Notes: generated from the letters alone by a model not told the origin. DNA of 64,000 nt from a virus (IMGVR_UViG_3300028048_000096:36767-100766), one strand, 5' to 3'; numbered from the stretch's first letter, positions 13,248-40,693 are shown. A program made the numbers and translations.

Positions 13248-13411
13248 TGTTTAAAGTTAAGAAAATAAGTACGGGTGAAATTTTTCAAGTCCTCGATACT
13301 CATGTTGATGATTATTTTAATATAACCTATTTTCTTATTTGGGAAAACAATGGTTGGAGATGGAGGCTTGCAAAGAATTTCGTACCACCAGGAGTAGAAA
13401 TTAATGAGTAA
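13247..13411 (+). CDS. 54-aa hypothetical protein not in the ORF track
   Basis: TAATG overlap with the upstream gene; MFKVKK...FLIWENNGWRW...NFVPP; overlaps the gyrB start. Confidence 0.6.
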   Translation: MFKVKKISTGEIFQVLDTHVDDYFNITYFLIWENNGWRWRLAKNFVPPGVEINE

Positions 13412-15257
13412 TTCTTATGGAATTGATGATATTAAAAGTTTAAGTTTCCGCGAAGGCGTGCGCGAGCGTATACAAATGTATTTAGGCAGCGATGACCTTG
13501 ATGGAACATATCAGGCTTTTAAAGAAATTATAAATAATGCAACTGATGAAGCAATCGCAGGATTTGGTACAAAAATTGAAATCTACGTCCATGAAAGTGA
13601 TAACTCAATAGATATTCGTGATTATGGGCGCGGCGTTCCTTTTGGAATTCGTGAAGATGGAGAGAATGTTTTAATTTCAATCTATTCTAAATCTCATACG
13701 GGTGGAAAATTTGAAGAAGGTGCATATAAGAATTCAAGCGGTCTTAATGGTATTGGCGCCAAGTGCGTTTGTTTAAGTTCTGACCATTTTCTTGTTCAAA
13801 GTTTTCGTGATGGCAAGGGCGCGGAAGCAAGATTTAAGAAAGGTTTTCTTGAATCTTATGAAGAATTTGATACTGCCGAGCCAAACGGAACTTTTGTTTC
13901 CTTTCAACCTGATCCTGAGGTTTTTAAGAATGGAGAACTTGGTTATTCTTTTGAAAAGATAAGTGAAGATATTAAAAATATATCATATCTTTATAGTGGA
14001 ATAACCTTTGAAATTAAAGGTGAAAAAGGTAAGAAAAATACCTATTGCGCCAAAAATGGAATTGTAGATTTTGTAAAAGACAATATAAAAAGTCCTTTAC
14101 ATAAACATATAATTGTAGGTAAAGCAGAAGATGAAACTGATAAAGTTGAAATTGCATTCCAATGGGGAGATGGAAAAGAAAGCGAGTATGTCTTCGTTAA
14201 TGGCTTGCGTTGTCCAGAAGGTGGTAGTCCTATCACCGGCGCAAAGGGAGCAATTACGCGTACGTTTAATTCGCTCTCAGGGCAAAAATTCGATGGCGAT
14301 AGTATACGTTCAGGTTTGTTCTATGTTATCAACTGTTCCGTGGCGCAACCTTCTTTTGCTAACCAAACGAAGTCAAAAATTAACAACGCTAATTTGCGAA
14401 CTTTGGCTTCAAATGCATTCTCAGACGCACTCAAGCAAATGAGCCTGAGATATAAGGATGAGTTTGATACAATTGTTGAATTGCTTAAAAAGTATGCGAA
14501 GGCTGAGGCCGCTGCAGAAAGAGCAAGACAGAATGTATTAAACGCGGCGCGCGAGATTGAAAAAAATCAAAAGAAAAAGGTTTTTGCAAGTGATAAGCTT
14601 AAGGACGCAGAATTTCTTGGACAAAATTCCACTCTTCTAATTGTCGAAGGTAATAGTGCTATGGGAGGCATGGCGCGAGCTCGTGATTATACTCACTATG
14701 GACTACTCGCAATTAGAGGAAAAATTATCAACTGTTTGTCTAATCCTGAAGAGAAAATTTATAATAATGAAGAGATTAAGCTGCTTTTAAGTGCAATGAA
14801 TATCGTACCTGGGAAGTATAATTCACAAAAATTACGCTATGGAAAGATAGGTATCTGCGTCGACGCTGATTCCGATGGAAGTCATATTGCATTACTTATA
14901 ATGAGTGCGTTACAGTATCTTGCACCGGAATTCATCCGCGAAGGGCGTTTGTGCTGGTTAAGGTCTCCACTCTATATTGTTGAAAACAAGGGAAAAGAAA
15001 GTTATTATTTCACCGATGAAGAATTTAATAAGGTAAGAAATAAGATTAAGGGTGAAGTTACTAGGGCGAAGGGTCTTGGTGAATTATCCGATGAGACCGC
15101 AAGGGCTTCAATGTTTTCAAGTGAATATCAAAGGATGGACGTGTTAGATTGGGATGCAGATGCAGTAAGTTTATTATATGACTTAATGGGCGAAGATGTA
15201 GAGTGCCGTCGAAAATTTATTATGGAAAAGGTAGATTTTACCAAAATACGAGAATAA
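13404..15257 (+). CDS. gyrB: type IIA topoisomerase B subunit (GyrB/ParE)
   Basis: GHKL motifs (EIINNATDE, DYGRGVP, GGKF, GLNGIG); Toprim EGNSA, IRGK, DADSDG, KGLGE. Confidence 0.92.
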   Translation: MSNSYGIDDIKSLSFREGVRERIQMYLGSDDLDGTYQAFKEIINNATDEAIAGFGTKIEIYVHESDNSIDIRDYGRGVPFGIREDGENVLISIYSKSHTGGKFEEGAYKNSSGLNGIGAKCVCLSSDHFLVQSFRDGKGAEARFKKGFLESYEEFDTAEPNGTFVSFQPDPEVFKNGELGYSFEKISEDIKNISYLYSGITFEIKGEKGKKNTYCAKNGIVDFVKDNIKSPLHKHIIVGKAEDETDKVEIAFQWGDGKESEYVFVNGLRCPEGGSPITGAKGAITRTFNSLSGQKFDGDSIRSGLFYVINCSVAQPSFANQTKSKINNANLRTLASNAFSDALKQMSLRYKDEFDTIVELLKKYAKAEAAAERARQNVLNAAREIEKNQKKKVFASDKLKDAEFLGQNSTLLIVEGNSAMGGMARARDYTHYGLLAIRGKIINCLSNPEEKIYNNEEIKLLLSAMNIVPGKYNSQKLRYGKIGICVDADSDGSHIALLIMSALQYLAPEFIREGRLCWLRSPLYIVENKGKESYYFTDEEFNKVRNKIKGEVTRAKGLGELSDETARASMFSSEYQRMDVLDWDADAVSLLYDLMGEDVECRRKFIMEKVDFTKIRE

Positions 15258-15258
15258 T

Positions 15259-15981
15259 ATGAAACTAATTGATTTAACTGGTAAAACTTTCGGTAATTTA
15301 ACTGTTATTGAGAGAGATTGGGAATATCAAAAGAAAAACAACTATGAAAAACCATATTGGAAGTGTCATTGCTCTTGTGGGAAAATTGTTTCAGTTTTAG
15401 GGAAAAGTCTACGAGAAGGTACACAAGTTAGTTGTGGGTGCCTAGCCAAGCAAAGAGCTAAACAATTAAATTTTAAAGATATTACTAATCAGCGATTCGG
15501 TAAGCTGACAGCTTTAAAATATGTTGGAAATTCTAAGTGGGAATGTCAATGTGATTGTGGTTTTAAATGTGTGGTTGCTACTGGTCATTTAACCTCTGGT
15601 CACACCACATCATGTGGTTGTTTGCGTTCTAAAGGAGAGTCGATAATTTCTCAATGGCTAGATACAAATAACTATCTTTATAAAAAACAATATACAAATC
15701 AATTATTGAGAAATAATAAAGGTAATATATTGAAAATTGATTTTGCTATTTTAAATAGTCAAAATCAACCAATAGGTTTTATTGAATATAATGGTAAACA
15801 ACATTATGATATTAATGATGCTTGGTATAAACCAGAAGTAGAAGAGGGATTAATAATAAAGGAGCAATATGCTTACAAAAACAATATTCCTTTTATTATT
15901 ATCTCTTATCAAGATGATATTATTAGTACATTAGAAAATTTTATTTTGAAGAAAGTTGATTTTAGTAAGGTAAGAGAATAA
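15259..15981 (+). mobile_element. free-standing homing-endonuclease-like gene (2 Cys-rich repeats + PD-(D/E)XK-like domain)
   Basis: DLTG..FG.LTV...WKCHCSCG...SCGC x2, then KIDF...IEYNGKQHY; sits between gyrB and gyrA. Confidence 0.8.
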
Positions 15982-18330
15982 ATGAGTAATTTAAAAACAA
16001 TAATCGAAGATTCAATGATACAATATAGTGGTGCGGTTTTGCAAAGCCGTGCTCTTGTTGACGTGCGCGATGGTCTCAAACCATCTGCTCGTCAAATCTT
16101 CTATTCAATGCTTACTCGTAAACTTACTCATAATAAACCATATAAGAAAACTGCTAATGCTGTTGGTATGGCTATGGCTGACTTCTATATCCATGGTGAT
16201 TCAAGTTGCGAAGGCGTTATAATGCGCGCCGGTCAAGAATTTGCCATGAGATATCCACTTGTAGATGTTAAAGGTAACGTAGGTTCGCTTATTGAATCTG
16301 GCAATTGGGCTGCCATGCGTTATACAGAAAGCCGACTCTCAAAAATTTCTAATATCTTATTCACAGATATAGATAAGGATACAATAGAAGAATGGAGAGA
16401 TAACTATGATAATACAAAACAGTATCCCGCTGTTCTTCCAAGTAAAGGCTTCTACAATATATGTAACGGAAGTCAAGGAATTGGAGTTGGTCTTGCCGCG
16501 TCAATACCTCAGTATAACTTAAAAGAAATGAACCAAGCTCTTGAGCACTTACTTCTCAACCCTGATTGCGATTTTGAAGAAATTTATATTGCTCCAGACT
16601 TTGCGACGGGCGCGATTCTTCTTAATGAAGATGAAGTTAAGAACTCAATGAAGCAAGGAACTGGTTTTGCTTGTAAGTTACGTAGCGTTGTAGACTATGA
16701 TAAGAAAGAAAATTGCTTCATAGTAACTGAAATACCCTATGGAGTTTATACAAATACAATATGCGGTGAATTGGAAGATATAATTAACGGTGAAGAAAAT
16801 CCAGGAATTGAACGTTTTAACGACTTAACTGGAAAGACTCCACTTATTAAAATTTACCTTAATAAAAGAGTTAATCCCGATAAAGTATTAAAGTATTTAT
16901 ATAAGAATACTTCGCTTCAATACTACTATGGAATTAATTTTACAATGTTAGATATGGGTAGATTTCCAAAAGTGTTTACTTGGAAAGAAATGTTACAAGC
17001 CCATATTGACCATGAAAAAGAAGTTTATCGCAGAGGGTTTGAATTTGACCTTAAAAAGATAACTGACCGACTTCATATAATTGATGGATTATTGATTTGT
17101 CTTGCTAATATTGATGAAGTAGTACATATAATTAAATCGTCCACGTCGTCAGTTACGGCGGCCACCGCATTAAAAGAGCGATTCTTACTTGATGATGTGC
17201 AGACAAAGGCAATTCTTGATATGAAGTTAAGCCGACTCGCGCATTTAGAGGTTAAGAAATTAACTGATGAGAAAGAAGAACTTGAACGGTCGGCCGCGCA
17301 TATAAGTCAAATCTTATCCGACGTCGACTTATTTAATCAAGAACTTATAAATGGTTGGAGAGAAGTTTCCCAAAAATTTGGTGATGAGCGTCGCACGCGC
17401 ATCCTCAATATTGCTAAAGAAAACGAAGAGCCGCGCGAAACTCATGAACTTCTAATCAACCTATCAAATCAAAATAATATTTATATCACAACCGTTTCAA
17501 CACTTTATTCACAAAAACGTGGTGGTGTGGGCAATAAATTCAAAATGAGTAAAGGAGAATATGTGATAAGTACTGCTTCTGGTACAAACCTCGATACACT
17601 TCTCTTCTTCTCTAATGAGGGTAATTGCTATCACACTCAAATTTCAGACCTACCATTTGAGGAAGTGATTCCAATTGAATCACTATGCAACCTCAACACA
17701 ACAGAACACATTAAACAACTCGCATTTCTCAATCGCAAAGACAGTAAAGAACATATCATTTTCTTGACTAAAAAGGGAATACTCAAAAAGTCTAGATTAT
17801 CCGAATATAATACAAAAATGAAAATCGGTGTTAAGGCCCTTAACTTAGACGAAGGCGATGAAATTTGTTCAATACTTCTAATGAATGATGAACGAGTTGG
17901 TATGTTGACAGCGCGCGGTCAATTCGTAATGTGTGAAACCAAAGACATACGTGCTATTGGTAGAATCGCGCGAGGAGTAAAAGGAATTACGTTAAATCTG
18001 GGTGATAGTTTAGTTTCAGCACAAATCATTCCAAGCAACGTAAAAGAATTATTGACCATAAGTGAGTTGGGCTTCAGTAAACGAACTTCAATTTCTGAGT
18101 TTAACGTAACTGGTAGAGCAACCAAAGGAGTAAAAATCCAAACACTTAAAGAAAACGATTCAATGATTGACTTTGCACCCATTGTGAACCAGAGAGATAC
18201 GATAGTGGTGTCATCGAACTCTCAAATCAAATTTAACATTGACGAGATTAACTTACTTAGCAAAGGCGCGCAAGGCACCAAATCGATAAAATTGAATGTA
18301 GCTAAAGTAATTGGATTACAAATTTTTTAA
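15982..18330 (+). CDS. gyrA: type IIA topoisomerase A subunit (GyrA/ParC)
   Basis: RALVDVRDGLKP, YIHGDSS, AAMRYTESRL (catalytic Tyr); beta-pinwheel CTD with QKRGGVG. Confidence 0.92.
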   Translation: MSNLKTIIEDSMIQYSGAVLQSRALVDVRDGLKPSARQIFYSMLTRKLTHNKPYKKTANAVGMAMADFYIHGDSSCEGVIMRAGQEFAMRYPLVDVKGNVGSLIESGNWAAMRYTESRLSKISNILFTDIDKDTIEEWRDNYDNTKQYPAVLPSKGFYNICNGSQGIGVGLAASIPQYNLKEMNQALEHLLLNPDCDFEEIYIAPDFATGAILLNEDEVKNSMKQGTGFACKLRSVVDYDKKENCFIVTEIPYGVYTNTICGELEDIINGEENPGIERFNDLTGKTPLIKIYLNKRVNPDKVLKYLYKNTSLQYYYGINFTMLDMGRFPKVFTWKEMLQAHIDHEKEVYRRGFEFDLKKITDRLHIIDGLLICLANIDEVVHIIKSSTSSVTAATALKERFLLDDVQTKAILDMKLSRLAHLEVKKLTDEKEELERSAAHISQILSDVDLFNQELINGWREVSQKFGDERRTRILNIAKENEEPRETHELLINLSNQNNIYITTVSTLYSQKRGGVGNKFKMSKGEYVISTASGTNLDTLLFFSNEGNCYHTQISDLPFEEVIPIESLCNLNTTEHIKQLAFLNRKDSKEHIIFLTKKGILKKSRLSEYNTKMKIGVKALNLDEGDEICSILLMNDERVGMLTARGQFVMCETKDIRAIGRIARGVKGITLNLGDSLVSAQIIPSNVKELLTISELGFSKRTSISEFNVTGRATKGVKIQTLKENDSMIDFAPIVNQRDTIVVSSNSQIKFNIDEINLLSKGAQGTKSIKLNVAKVIGLQIF

Positions 18331-37693: not shown

Positions 37694-39546
37694 ATGATTA
37701 AGATTGATAATCAATGTGTATCTAATTTTGAAAATGCAATTAGAGGCATGCGCAATCCGTTAGAGTCATGGAAGCAATCTGATAGTCGTTATGGATTAGG
37801 AGATTGCGACGATGAATATTGTGCAATGCGCTTATTTGATTCTACTGATGCCTGGATGAATTATTTGGGGTATGATTTCTTAGAAGATATAGAATCAGAA
37901 GCTGACCGCAAACAATGGCTAAAAGCAGAAAAAGAAATTGAAGAATGGCTTTGGAGTTCATCTTTATTGGATAAAGATGGGCCATATGAGCATAGATTTT
38001 ATTTTGGACCGAAAGACTTGAAACTTGCTCAAAGTCTTGTACGCGCTGGCACAGATGAAGCAAAGTTTATAAGGCAAATTTTTATTTCAGTAGATATTAC
38101 TGCGCCATTATATTGGTAGTTTCTTTCTGCCAATGAAATACTTTTCCCATTTATCGATGGGGGTTATACCGAAGGGTATAGCTAACGGGGAACTTACCTT
38201 AAGAATCCCGTGGGAAACATAAAAGGTTTCAAATTCTTATAGTGTTTGATACTCTTTTTCACTTATATATAGAAGAGAAAAAGAGGTGATTAACAATGGA
38301 AAAACAAACAAGACAATCAAAACCTAGGGTTGACTTAACTAATAAACAGTTTGGTTACTTAACGCCAATGTACTATATAAAAGGTGGAAAATGGCATTGC
38401 AAATGTAAATGTGGAAATGAAATTGATGTAGATACTCGAAATTTGAATAGCGGACATACTAAATCATGTGGATGCTTAATAAAAGAAAAAGCATCATTGA
38501 ATGTAAAAGATATGGTTGGCTATGAATCTGAATATTTAAAAGTTTTATCGCGCGCGGGTTCTGATAACCAGGGTGCTGCCTTATGGAACTGTTTATGTAA
38601 AAGATGCGGTAATACTTTTATTACACGAGGCTCTTCAATTCGAGCAGGATATGTGCAAGGATGTGGTTGTGTTCATTCTTTAAATGAGCAAAATATTGCA
38701 CAATTATTAACACAAAACCATATAGAGTTTGCAACTCAATACACTTTTCCTGACTTAATTGGTATAAATGGTGGCCATTTACGATTTGATTTCGCAATTT
38801 TTGATTCAAATCATATTTTATCACATTTAATAGAATACAATGGCGAGCAACATTATATCCAACCATTAGGTAGTTGGGAAAAAGGTTTTGATACATTACA
38901 AGAGCATGACAAAATAAAACAAGAATATTGTAAAAAACACAACATTCGATTAATTGTTATTCCATATACTCAACAATATACTATAAGTGATTTGTTATAA
39001 TTTATGAACCTGTAGAGACTATCCCCAAAGCCTTCTGGGCCGGGGAGTAGGGCTACTATTGATACGTAGCGATGTTTTAGGTAACGAAGCATCTGAAAAC
39101 CGAAATGGTATCCTATATTTTAAAATATAGTAAAAGATAGTCCACTTAAAGGGAAAGAAATGGATACTTACAAAGTAGGGACCGTAGCTAATTCTACTAG
39201 TACAATGCATAAGTTAAGCTCGCGACCAATTGAAATTAACGACTTTAGTTTTGATAAAGAATTTCATAGCTATCCTATGATACAGAATATTATAAGAGAT
39301 TGTGAGTTTTTAAGACAAAAATATATCGAAACAAAAGATAAAACTTACTGGCGCGCACTTATACAATTGTTGCCTGAATCATATAATCAAACTCGTACTT
39401 GGACAGCAAACTATGCTGTTTTAAGAAATATATATTTTGCAAGGCGCAATCATAAATTAACTGAGTGGAGAGAATTCTGTCAATGGATTGAATCTCTTCC
39501 TTGGGCAAAAGAATTAATTTGTTTAGAGGAGAAGAAGGAAAAATGA
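37694..39546 (+). CDS. divergent ThyX-like protein, spliced: exon1 37694-38117, exon2 39152-39546 (272 aa)
   Basis: junction TGG T|GG AAA gives APLYWWKEMDTYKVG..NSTSTMHK; LLPESY, NY..LRNIY..R..H are ThyX-like, but the canonical RHR motif is absent. Confidence 0.7.
38118..39151 (+). ncRNA. group I intron in the ThyX-like gene
   Basis: P1 ATTGGT|AG : CTGCCAAT with U.G at the splice site; P10 TTTCTTTC : GAAAGAAA; P7 GACTA:TAGTC; terminal G. Confidence 0.92.
38296..39000 (+). mobile_element. intron-encoded endonuclease (2 Cys-rich repeats + PD-(D/E)XK-like domain)
   Basis: WHCKCKCG..SCGC repeats; LRFDF..IEYNGEQHY..D..K..YC..IPY. Confidence 0.8.
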
Positions 39547-39760: not shown

Positions 39761-40693
39761 ATGCAAAAACTAATTGATGAAACGGGCAATAAGTATGGTT
39801 TATTAACTGTTATTGAACCCACAAGAGATAAAAATAACCGGGCGGCATGGCTATGTAAGTGCGAATGCGGGAATACAAAAATAGTTCGCGGTTCGGATTT
39901 ACGAGAAGGAAAAATTACAAGTTGCGGCCGGGGATGTAAGCTTCGCTATCAACGTAGTGGAGTTTTTAAAGATGAAACAGGAAATCAATATGGACGTTTA
40001 ACCGTTTTATACCGCGCACCGTATAAAAAAAATGATAATAAAGTGTTATGGCATTGCCACTGTTCTTGTGGTAATGAATGTGACGTAAGAGGTGCTGATT
40101 TACGTAGTGGAAAAATTGTTTCATGTGGATGTTATAGTGCAGAACAAGCTTCTAATTTACAATTCAAAGATGAGACTGGACATCAATATGGATATCTTAC
40201 TGTTTTATCATTAGTTAAAAAATCACCAGAAGCAATTTGGCTTTGTAAATGTAAATGTGGTAATTTAAAAGAAGTAAGTGGTCAAATGCTTCGTAATGGA
40301 AATACAAAATCATGTGGCTGTTTAAAATCTTGGTATGAAGAAGAAATTGCTGCTATTTTAAATAATAATAATGTAAATTATAGTCGCGAAGTAAGCTTTT
40401 TTGACTTAATAAGTGATACAAAACATAAATTACGTTTTGACTTTGGTATTTATGATGAAAAAAATCAATTAAAAGGACTTATTGAGTATCAAGGTAAGCA
40501 ACATTTTGAACCCATTAATGGATGGGGAGGCCAAGAAGGCTTTGAACGACTTCAAAAGCATGATAATATGAAAAAGGAATATTGCAAACAAAAAGGTATT
40601 CCATTGCTTATTCTTGATAAAAATAATAATTTAGGAGAAGATGTTATGATATATATAACAAAGATTTTTGGAGGTATTTGGGATGCCGAATGA
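39761..40693 (+). mobile_element. free-standing homing-endonuclease-like gene (3 Cys-rich repeats + PD-(D/E)XK-like domain)
   Basis: DETG..YG.LTV..W.C.C.CG..L..G...SCG x3; LRFDF..IEYQGKQHF. Confidence 0.8.

Follow-up and report, generated by a model that had tools for sequence, protein, structure and literature searches.

The gyrB-nuclease-gyrA junction

The window, that is, the whole 64,000-nucleotide stretch of viral DNA that was analysed, carries gyrB, a free-standing nuclease ORF and gyrA on the plus strand. The features of the junction are as follows.

13404-15257, plus strand: gyrB, 617 aa, with the Pfam domains DNA_gyraseB, Toprim and HATPase_c
13404-15209, plus strand: gyrB body up to codon -16, the resident sequence of the invaded phage
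15204-15209, plus strand: codons -17/-16 (TGC CGT), a candidate immunity change adjoining the insertion point
15210-15257, plus strand: upstream (working) gyrB tail, codons -15 to stop, a foreign replacement tail and left end of the proposed cassette
15258, plus strand: spacer of one base separating the stop of gyrB from the nuclease ATG, in a termination-reinitiation context
15259-15981, plus strand: free-standing nuclease ORF, 240 aa, with its own ATG, ending at the stop of the displaced gyrB tail
15286-15618, plus strand: pair of Cys-rich, CapR-like zinc-ribbon repeats (residues ~10-120), presumed to bind DNA
15628-15960, plus strand: Vsr-like PD-(D/E)XK nuclease domain (residues 124-234) in the predicted structure
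15937-15981, plus strand: downstream copy, the resident gyrB tail with its stop, now the nuclease C-terminus
15982-18330, plus strand: gyrA, with the Pfam domains DNA_topoisoIV and DNA_gyraseA_C; its ATG abuts the stop codon of the captured tail, an arrangement shared with the empty allele

The 13 C-terminal residues of GyrB (15216-15254, followed by TAA) recur at the end of the nuclease ORF (15940-15978, followed by TAA). An earlier reading of the DNA from sequence only had described this repeat, and its observations hold: 9 of 13 residues are identical, the synonymous differences AAG/AAA, GTA/GTT, AAA/AAG and CGA/AGA are all present between the copies, and the gyrA ATG (15982) immediately follows the second TAA. 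The extent given to the repeat requires correction, however, in that it reaches one to two codons further left, to codon -14 or -15 (15934/15937) rather than -13. With codon -14 and the stop counted, the two tails are identical at 34 of 45 nt. When the 13-residue tail is compared with the whole 64-kb window in six frames, the best other match has only 6 identities, which, together with the match of the downstream copy to genuine gyrB tails described below, excludes chance as the source of the repeat.

The nuclease has no stop codon of its own, and its frame runs into the displaced gyrB tail. The TAAATG junction to gyrA is present in the window, in the nuclease-bearing allele L097 and in L081, an allele in which the site is empty. 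The sequence-only reading had also proposed that coupling to gyrA is preserved; direct adjacency is found in the window and L097 only, whereas in the other relatives the captured tail is followed by additional ORFs. At both junctions, the predicted RNA folding does not exceed that of shuffled sequences.

The nuclease and its relatives

The nuclease has no Pfam match above the cut-off, and weak similarity to DUF2726 and DUF5889 is found in 19 and 16 of 31 relatives, respectively. A sequence-profile search of the PDB returned one chance match (E 0.48), and Foldseek returned no PDB match at E ≤0.001. In a fold search of 48,161 chains with the predicted model (mean pLDDT 86.8), the best match is the catalytic domain of I-Bth0305I (3r3p_B; Z 10.2, rmsd 2.6, 92 of 98 residues aligned), followed by 3hrl (Z 8.6) and Vsr (1cw0, Z 8.3). 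The catalytic domain of the model has a Vsr-like PD-(D/E)XK fold, and residues D161, E176, H182 and D187 are invariant in the alignment of nuclease relatives. The last helix of the predicted domain (221-232) runs into the captured tail. The N-terminal zinc ribbons are suggested by invariant Cys columns, by repeated strand-strand-strand-helix units in the model and by CapR-named clusters among atlas look-alikes.

I-Bth0305I is a Vsr-like ("EDxHD") homing endonuclease encoded in a recA intron of a Bacillus phage (PDB 3r3p). A survey of PD-(D/E)XK enzymes groups it with Vsr, DUF559 and DUF2726 (PMC3424549). The two proteins share an N-terminal DNA-binding part (presumed in the window protein), a C-terminal nuclease and, as judged from the predicted model, the catalytic fold. 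However, the window protein is only 14% identical to I-Bth0305I, is free-standing rather than intron-encoded, and carries different DNA-binding modules of the zinc-ribbon type. The dN/dS of the nuclease against its relatives is 0.07-0.23, which indicates strong purifying selection over deep divergence.

A search of GenBank phage DNA with 14800-16500 gave no match, and the relatives come from metagenomic collections only; the phages are uncultured. All of the approximately 35 close nuclease relatives (51-90% identity) end in a gyrB-type tail (31 of 31 among those aligned), and the nuclease ATG lies -1 to +4 nt from the gyrB stop in 16 of 16 contexts read, whatever lies downstream. Approximately 150 distant homologues at unrelated loci lack such a tail, and tail-ending nucleases are found only at gyrB, which is the pattern that the sequence-only reading had anticipated. 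For distant homologues located directly after another gene, the end-to-end similarity is no greater than for mismatched pairs, which gives no sign of tail capture in this set. An apparent decayed tail in L101, whose nuclease is 45% identical, was rejected as chance: this nuclease lies between nrdD and nrdG, and the matching letters are the start of the next gene.

The distribution at the gyrB site is patchy, with 16 carrier alleles against 73 nuclease-less alleles, including one truly empty site (L081). Several other nuclease genes occupy the same gyrB-gyrA spot in relatives, and two further paralogues of the nuclease are present inside the window. On the gyrB tree, the presence of the nuclease changes state 12 times, at least 7 of them on starred branches.

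Resident and replacement gyrB tails

In a lineage tree built on GyrB residues -118 to -19, with the tail excluded, the window nests (support 98, starred) with seven nuclease-less alleles (L039, L040, L041, L046, L062, L063 and L081). All seven carry the tail type of the downstream copy, which is closer than the upstream copy to each of them in nucleotide identity. Against genuine gyrB tails of related phages, the downstream copy reaches 13/14 aa and up to 41/45 nt (41/45 to L040 and L064, and 40/45 to the empty allele L081, in which the tail is followed by TAAATG and gyrA), compared with at most 38/45 nt between insert-free relatives and the upstream substitute. The same relation is observed in three other carriers that group elsewhere on the gyrB tree (L083 with L072/L075, L097 with L042/L048, and L100 with L052), in which a match to the local lineage is seen for the downstream copy (42/45 nt for L083 vs L072) but not for the upstream one. 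Three closely related nucleases have downstream copies that match three different resident lineages at 41-42/45 nt. The downstream copy is the resident tail and the upstream copy is the replacement, as the sequence-only reading had proposed in stating that the element supplied a new tail and captured the old one. Its further suggestion of a recoded, cleavage-resistant tail is not supported; the working tail diverges from the resident type approximately as the neighbouring gyrB does (77% identity to the empty allele L081, vs 73% for the gyrB body) and is not an outlier.

The two copies are nearly alike in three deeper lineages (L089, L092 and L093; 12-13/14 aa), and both homing within a lineage and conversion between the repeats explain this similarity. 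A possible remnant in L059 was rejected: resemblance to the empty allele is limited to the ~18 nt preceding gyrA (14/18 by hand count), and the rest of the extended C-terminus is not confidently alignable.

The insertion lies near the 3' end of gyrB, as had been claimed, but the junction is placed at codon -16/-15 and not approximately 13 codons before the stop. Between the window and L083, identity is approximately 65% in the gyrB body, 83% in the upstream tail, 85-90% in the nuclease and 77% in the downstream tail, and there is no similarity beyond. Between L059 and L087, gyrB is 90-96% identical up to about position -47 and about 75% identical thereafter, with 76% in the nuclease; the breakpoint is at the tail. 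The nuclease tree unites the window, L097 and L083 in a clade (99/96, starred), a grouping that the gyrB tree rejects (AU p 2e-5). The steps in identity at the tail boundary and the conflict between the trees indicate that the upstream tail travels with the nuclease, and the gyrB tail is conserved in 16 of 16 nuclease-bearing alleles. The closest nuclease-less relatives are only ~80-90% identical in nucleotide sequence; the cassette boundaries are therefore good only to one or two codons. The synonymous divergence between the window nuclease and its nearest relatives is 0.6-0.8, which indicates that the transfers are not very recent.

These breakpoints bear on the possibility of a single ancient insertion with tail duplication, followed by vertical descent, repeated losses (e.g., by recombination between the 45-nt repeats) and conversion within genomes, without ongoing homing. 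Lineage-specific residues shared by the two copies in deep lineages (L089, 13/14; L092 and L093, 12/14) would fit such a history, as would the tail of the nuclease-less L065 and L066, which is identical to the L059 upstream tail at 44/45 nt, Cys codon included, as expected from repeat-mediated loss. The rejected congruence of the nuclease and gyrB trees, the opposite contrasts of the two pairs (window vs L083, 86% in the nuclease and 65% in the gyrB body; L059 vs L087, 76% in the nuclease and 90% in gyrB), the abrupt breakpoints at the tail, and the match of three close nucleases to three different resident lineages render this history improbable. A similarly small probability is given to retention of the nuclease mainly as a weapon against competing related phages, whose gyrB it would cut (marker exclusion), with the duplicated tail a scar of its arrival. 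The strong purifying selection, the long persistence in many lineages and the retention of two further paralogues in the window agree with such a role, which is hard to tell from selfish homing because the same cut serves both; however, the patchy presence and the other nuclease genes that compete for the gyrB-gyrA spot look like selfish turnover.

Much less probable is the reverse assignment, in which the upstream tail is resident, the downstream copy is the nuclease's own travelling C-terminus and the insertion lies immediately 3' of the gyrB stop. The tail stays in frame in all close relatives, and its first residues fall in the last predicted helix, so the protein may need them; but in the window, L083, L097 and L100 it is the downstream copy that agrees with the local gyrB lineage and the upstream copy that goes with the nuclease, and a tail of this kind is missing from the distant homologues at other loci. 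Least probable of all, despite the occurrence of nucleases of the same fold in phage introns (I-Bth0305I) and of what seem to be intron-like inserts elsewhere in the window (thyX), is a group I intron or intein with the downstream tail as the true spliced gyrB end, given that the ORF, beginning 1 nt past the gyrB stop, occupies the insert to its end and leaves no room for a ribozyme, that the remaining 48 nt are conserved, translated gyrB tail, that no Rfam family matches anywhere in the window, nor any at E ≤1 within 14900-16300, and that the stop at 15255-15257 and the separate ATG exclude an intein, in agreement with the sequence-only reading.

A proposed tail-swapping cassette

The locus is probably occupied by a mobile homing-endonuclease cassette of approximately 730-780 nt (15204/15210 to ~15936), inserted within gyrB between codons -16 and -15. 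The cassette would consist, in order, of a replacement for the last 15 gyrB codons with a stop, the 1-nt spacer and the stop-less nuclease ORF; its tail would complete gyrB, and the nuclease would continue in frame into the displaced resident tail and terminate at the old gyrB stop. Because the nuclease ends there, the downstream neighbour (gyrA in the window, at TAAATG) would retain its start context, and translation of the three genes may remain coupled. During mixed infection, the nuclease would cut cassette-less gyrB alleles near codons -17 to -14, and the break would be repaired from the cassette-bearing genome, with gyrB as the homology arm on both sides (left, the gyrB body; right, the 45-nt tail). 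Since both arms are gyrB, spread would be independent of the hypervariable gyrB-gyrA spacer.

Two features may protect carriers: the putative site has lost its left half in the downstream copy, and the upstream copy is preceded by Cys, Tyr or Phe in place of Pro at codon -17. Codons -17/-16 are CCN AGA (Pro-Arg) in most nuclease-less alleles, compared with TGY/TAY/TTY CGN in those with the nuclease. Pro at codon -17 is present in 62 of 73 nuclease-less and 2 of 16 nuclease-bearing alleles (Fisher 5e-8; per-base p about 1e-7), the two exceptions being L089 and L099; by a conservative phylogenetic pair test the link is not significant (4 for, 1 against and 2 ties of 7 pairs). The replacement of Pro just left of the repeat is the change most linked to the nuclease in the alignment and is a candidate immunity change.

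The principle is already known from fungal mitochondrial mobile ORFs (mORFs) with a foreign gene C-terminus: atp6 of Allomyces macrogynus; atp6, atp9, cox2 and nad3 of Glomus sp.; atp9 of Rhizopus; and cox2 of Mortierella (PMC3630166). In these and in the window, an endonuclease gene lies in the 3' end of an essential gene and supplies an in-frame substitute C-terminus, apparently acquired horizontally, and the displaced native C-terminus lies downstream and is closer to insert-free relatives than the substitute is. The window differs in its phage host and gyrB target, and in a nuclease with zinc ribbons and a Vsr-like PD-(D/E)XK domain instead of LAGLIDADG or GIY-YIG. Additionally, the window nuclease has its own ATG after the substitute stop, whereas the fungal atp6 mORF is fused to the host gene, and it is stop-less, ends in the displaced tail and is flanked by a duplication of only 14-15 codons. 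The literature search on tail replacement by phage homing endonucleases found organelle papers only.

Free-standing homing endonucleases of T4-type phages (SegB, SegF, SegG and MobE) spread by "intronless homing", in which the insert-free allele is cut and flanking markers are co-converted, with carriers protected by differences at the target site. Like the window nuclease, they are encoded in intergenic regions or at gene ends and are patchy among related phages; unlike it, they lie between genes and cut at a distance. We know of no description of a T4-type free-standing nuclease that invades a coding sequence, replaces the end of the gene and captures the displaced one. To our knowledge, the usual view restricts free-standing homing endonucleases to intergenic positions, except where the host gene is shielded by an intron or intein. 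Replacement of the gene end with retention of the old one would be a third route in phages, and it recurs here in dozens of related phages.

It is more doubtful whether tail swapping is a scar left once or an adapted design that opens coding sequence to free-standing phage nucleases in the absence of introns and inteins; we put the latter forward tentatively, as somewhat the weaker case. If true, the use of conserved gyrB as both arms would permit spread across phages with unrelated gyrB-gyrA spacers, the old stop and its reinitiation site would be borrowed to serve the downstream gene, the first tail residues would finish the last helix of the nuclease domain, and the flanking direct repeats would permit clean loss of the cassette.

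The alleles form a natural series of 16 carriers, more than 70 non-carriers and one empty site, with at least 7 independent gains or losses, from which the cassette boundaries, the likely target (gyrB codons -17 to -14) and the candidate immunity change can be read off. The cassette explains local mosaicism at the gyrB 3' end. For annotation, this means that captured host sequence can account for the C-terminus of such a nuclease and for short "orphan" gene ends.

The gyrB-nuclease-gyrA locus and its encoded nuclease

The locus in the window comprises three consecutive genes:
13404-15257, + strand: gyrB, supported by Pfam
15259-15981, + strand: nuclease ORF of 240 aa, between gyrB and gyrA
15982-18330, + strand: gyrA, supported by Pfam

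Nine residues are common to the final 13 codons of gyrB and those of the nuclease ORF, the synonymous differences between the two tails named in the sequence-only reading are all present, and the gyrA ATG follows the second stop immediately, as that reading had described. The two tail copies are identical at 34 of 45 nt, with codon -14 (counted back from the gyrB stop) and the stop included, and no further site in the six frames of the window exceeds 6/13 to the gyrB tail. The window gyrB (13404-15257) is itself mosaic: its first two-thirds are nearest to the related phage loci L001 and L002 (about 70-85% nucleotide identity), and its last third is as close or closer to the L039-L046 group, with the switch near 14570.

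No Pfam family scores above threshold for the nuclease ORF, and the PHROGs families that match it are annotated as HNH or homing endonucleases. In an alignment of 31 close relatives (A1), Cys clusters in two N-terminal repeats are invariant, as are D161, E176, H182 and D187 in the C-terminal half; weak matches to DUF2726 and DUF5889 are found in 19 and 16 of the 31, respectively. A survey of the PD-(D/E)XK superfamily placed DUF2726 with Vsr, DUF559 and the homing endonuclease I-Bth0305I (PMC3424549). The AlphaFold model built from A1 (mean pLDDT 86.8) has two repeats of strand-strand-strand-helix topology and, at its C-terminus, an alpha/beta domain. When this domain is compared with 48,161 chains, the catalytic domain of I-Bth0305I ranks first (3r3p_B; Z 10.2, rmsd 2.6 over 92 residues), ahead of 3hrl and Vsr. 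Together with pairwise dN/dS values of 0.07-0.23 among the relatives, the predicted fold argues that the ORF is a working protein of the homing-endonuclease type, and the "HNH" label is probably wrong.

A protein search returned 30 protein clusters at 51-87% identity to the nuclease, every one of which (30/30) ends in a gyrB-type tail. Spacing between the gyrB stop and the nuclease ATG is -1 to +4 nt in 11 of 11 fetched contexts and in L059, L097, L099 and L100; in alleles with a split gyrB, the nuclease comes after the C-terminal gyrB fragment. gyrA is the next gene only in the window, L059 and L097, and the other carriers of the nuclease have small ORFs, HNH_3 or GIY-YIG genes downstream. 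Roughly 150 remoter homologues sit at other loci, among them two window paralogues and a gene flanked by nrdD and nrdG; none has a gyrB-type tail, and no capture of the ends of their own neighbouring genes is seen among them. Tailed relatives are all at gyrB in the contexts fetched, in line with the sequence-only reading, under which the tail should not recur on nucleases at unrelated loci. The tail thus appears to belong to the gyrB site rather than to the nuclease family. The nuclease genes at L093:3001-3735 and L096:520-1236 match database proteins only with TAG read as Gln, which suggests stop-codon reassignment in some members of this phage group.

One window paralogue (234 aa, 38296-39000) lies between two pieces of thyX (37694-38119 and 39160-39546). 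The sequence after the first piece is GC-rich and looks structured, and the thyX junction is without a few residues that the intact relative L101 has. The insert probably represents a group I intron that carries the endonuclease within it, although no Rfam family matches. Upstream of a dUTPase-like gene is a third paralogue (39761-40693), 310 aa long and with three zinc-ribbon repeats; no duplicated neighbour end is seen there.

Resident and mobile parts of the locus

Among 80 related gyrB-gyrA pairs from IMG/VR loci, the spacer ranges from -6 to 1694 nt, contains unrelated inserts and amounts to an insertion hot spot. Across L001-L082, nuclease genes of the HNH_3 and GIY-YIG types are found there along with unrelated small ORFs; L004, L047, L065, L073 and L113 carry members of further clades within the zinc-ribbon nuclease family, and L082 has a methyltransferase-like ORF whose first bases are the same as those of gyrA. 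In L084, L091, L092 (81-2998) and L093 (75-3000), gyrB itself is split into two ORFs near residue 490-500, with a GIY-YIG nuclease gene between the halves in L092 and L093 and nothing between them in L084 and L091, an arrangement reminiscent of T4 gene 39/mobA/gene 60.

A pattern scan for the tail-gyrA junction identified L081, an allele in which a gyrB tail of the downstream type is followed directly by gyrA, with TAAATG as in the window. The downstream copy matches this empty allele at 40 of 45 nt, which answers the comparison proposed in the sequence-only reading, and the gyrB tails of L040 and L064 at 41 of 45. The working tail matches no allele at more than 38 of 45 nt, the best being L065/L066 and L059. 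In a GyrB tree of 89 alleles (residues -118 to -19, tail excluded), the window groups at 98 with L039, L040, L041, L046, L062, L063 and L081, all of which are without the nuclease and carry the tail type of the downstream copy. The downstream copy also tracks the local lineage in L083 (with L072/L075), L097 (with L042/L048) and L100 (with L052). By these comparisons the downstream copy is the gyrB end present before insertion, and the original tail indeed serves as the in-frame C-terminus of the nuclease ORF, as had been proposed.

Four upstream tails (window, L059, L083 and L091) are alike among themselves. Nucleotide identity of the window to L083 is about 65% over the gyrB body, rises to 83% for the upstream tail and 85-90% across the nuclease, and falls to 77% for the downstream tail, with none beyond; between L059 and L087 it is 90-96% until about 47 nt before the stop and about 75% after. 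On the gyrB tree, carrier state has to change 12 times, 7 or more of these on well-supported branches. The nuclease tree unites the window, L097 and L083 (99/96), a grouping, picked after the trees were seen, that is rejected on the gyrB tree (AU p 2e-5). Tree placement, the identity steps at the tail and the tree conflict together indicate that the mobile unit is a substitute tail plus nuclease core, entering, as the alignments place it, between codons -16 and -15. The replacement tail of the sequence-only reading therefore stands, since it moves with the nuclease; the insertion point of about 13 codons before the stop is displaced to this junction.

The nuclease may instead benefit the phage as a weapon against competitors, a reading that sequence alone does not separate from selfish homing. 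One old insertion followed by vertical descent, losses and conversion between the repeats would fit the deep lineages, in which the two copies are nearly identical, but is at odds with both the tree conflict and the identity steps. An intron or intein, also dismissed in the sequence-only reading, is ruled out: gyrB has a stop and the nuclease its own ATG, the insert leaves no space for a ribozyme, and Rfam yields no match.

Possible carrier protection and the captured tail

Recoding of the tail against cleavage, as initially suggested, is not evident: the tail shows ordinary divergence, with 77% identity to the empty allele versus 73% for the adjacent gyrB body. The sharpest difference between carriers and non-carriers lies just left of the repeat, at codon -17, where 62 of 73 nuclease-free alleles encode Pro and 14 of 16 carriers instead encode Cys, Tyr, Phe or Glu (two or three base changes each); L089 and L099 are carriers that keep Pro. 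The following Arg codon tends to change from AGA to CGN in carriers. The association has p ~5e-8 with alleles taken as independent; in a conservative test on seven phylogenetically independent pairs, four are for, one is against and two are ties, which is not significant. Codon -17 is thus a good candidate, and no more, for an immunity change and a target position. L065 (3800-4721) and L066 (2900-3822) have no tail-swapping nuclease, and their tail is identical at 44 of 45 nt to the upstream tail of L059, Cys codon -17 included. These alleles may have lost the cassette through recombination between the repeats, or may have been converted to resistance without gaining it. Both have another nuclease (39% identical) 91 nt downstream.

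A stop before the tail is absent from every member of the nuclease clade (A1). The final nuclease-domain helix of the model (residues 221-232) takes in the first six captured residues, and those past the helix have low confidence. At L059:2300-2400 (same as L098 and L177; protein cluster P0006), the captured tail is longer and has decayed, the nuclease reading frame extends 7 nt into gyrA, and resemblance to the empty allele is limited to the last ~18 nt before the gyrA ATG. The nuclease of this cluster is intact despite its decayed, extended end, and on this evidence and the model it would need at most the first few captured residues. Use of the old stop as the nuclease end would keep the start context of the next gene, and the short distance from the new gyrB stop suggests synthesis of the nuclease by reinitiation. 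In a consensus scan, whose pattern matches are weak evidence, 11 of the 12 best-scoring promoter-like sites lie before gyrB leader ORFs and after gyrA, and the nuclease ORF itself contains weaker promoter-like sites and one terminator-like hairpin.

Parallels in other systems

The phage literature searched, including an article that deals with nuclease genes located at recombination boundaries in phages, holds no account of such tail replacement. The same principle has been described in fungal mitochondria for mobile endonuclease ORFs of Allomyces (atp6) and Glomus (atp6, atp9, cox2 and nad3), where the endonuclease brings a foreign C-terminus and the native one is left downstream, nearer to insert-free relatives (PMC3630166). 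The principle is therefore already known, and the gyrB cassette is a further instance of it, in phage. What distinguishes this instance is the depth of the natural series and, as read from the sequences, a separately translated, stop-less nuclease that would finish in the displaced tail.
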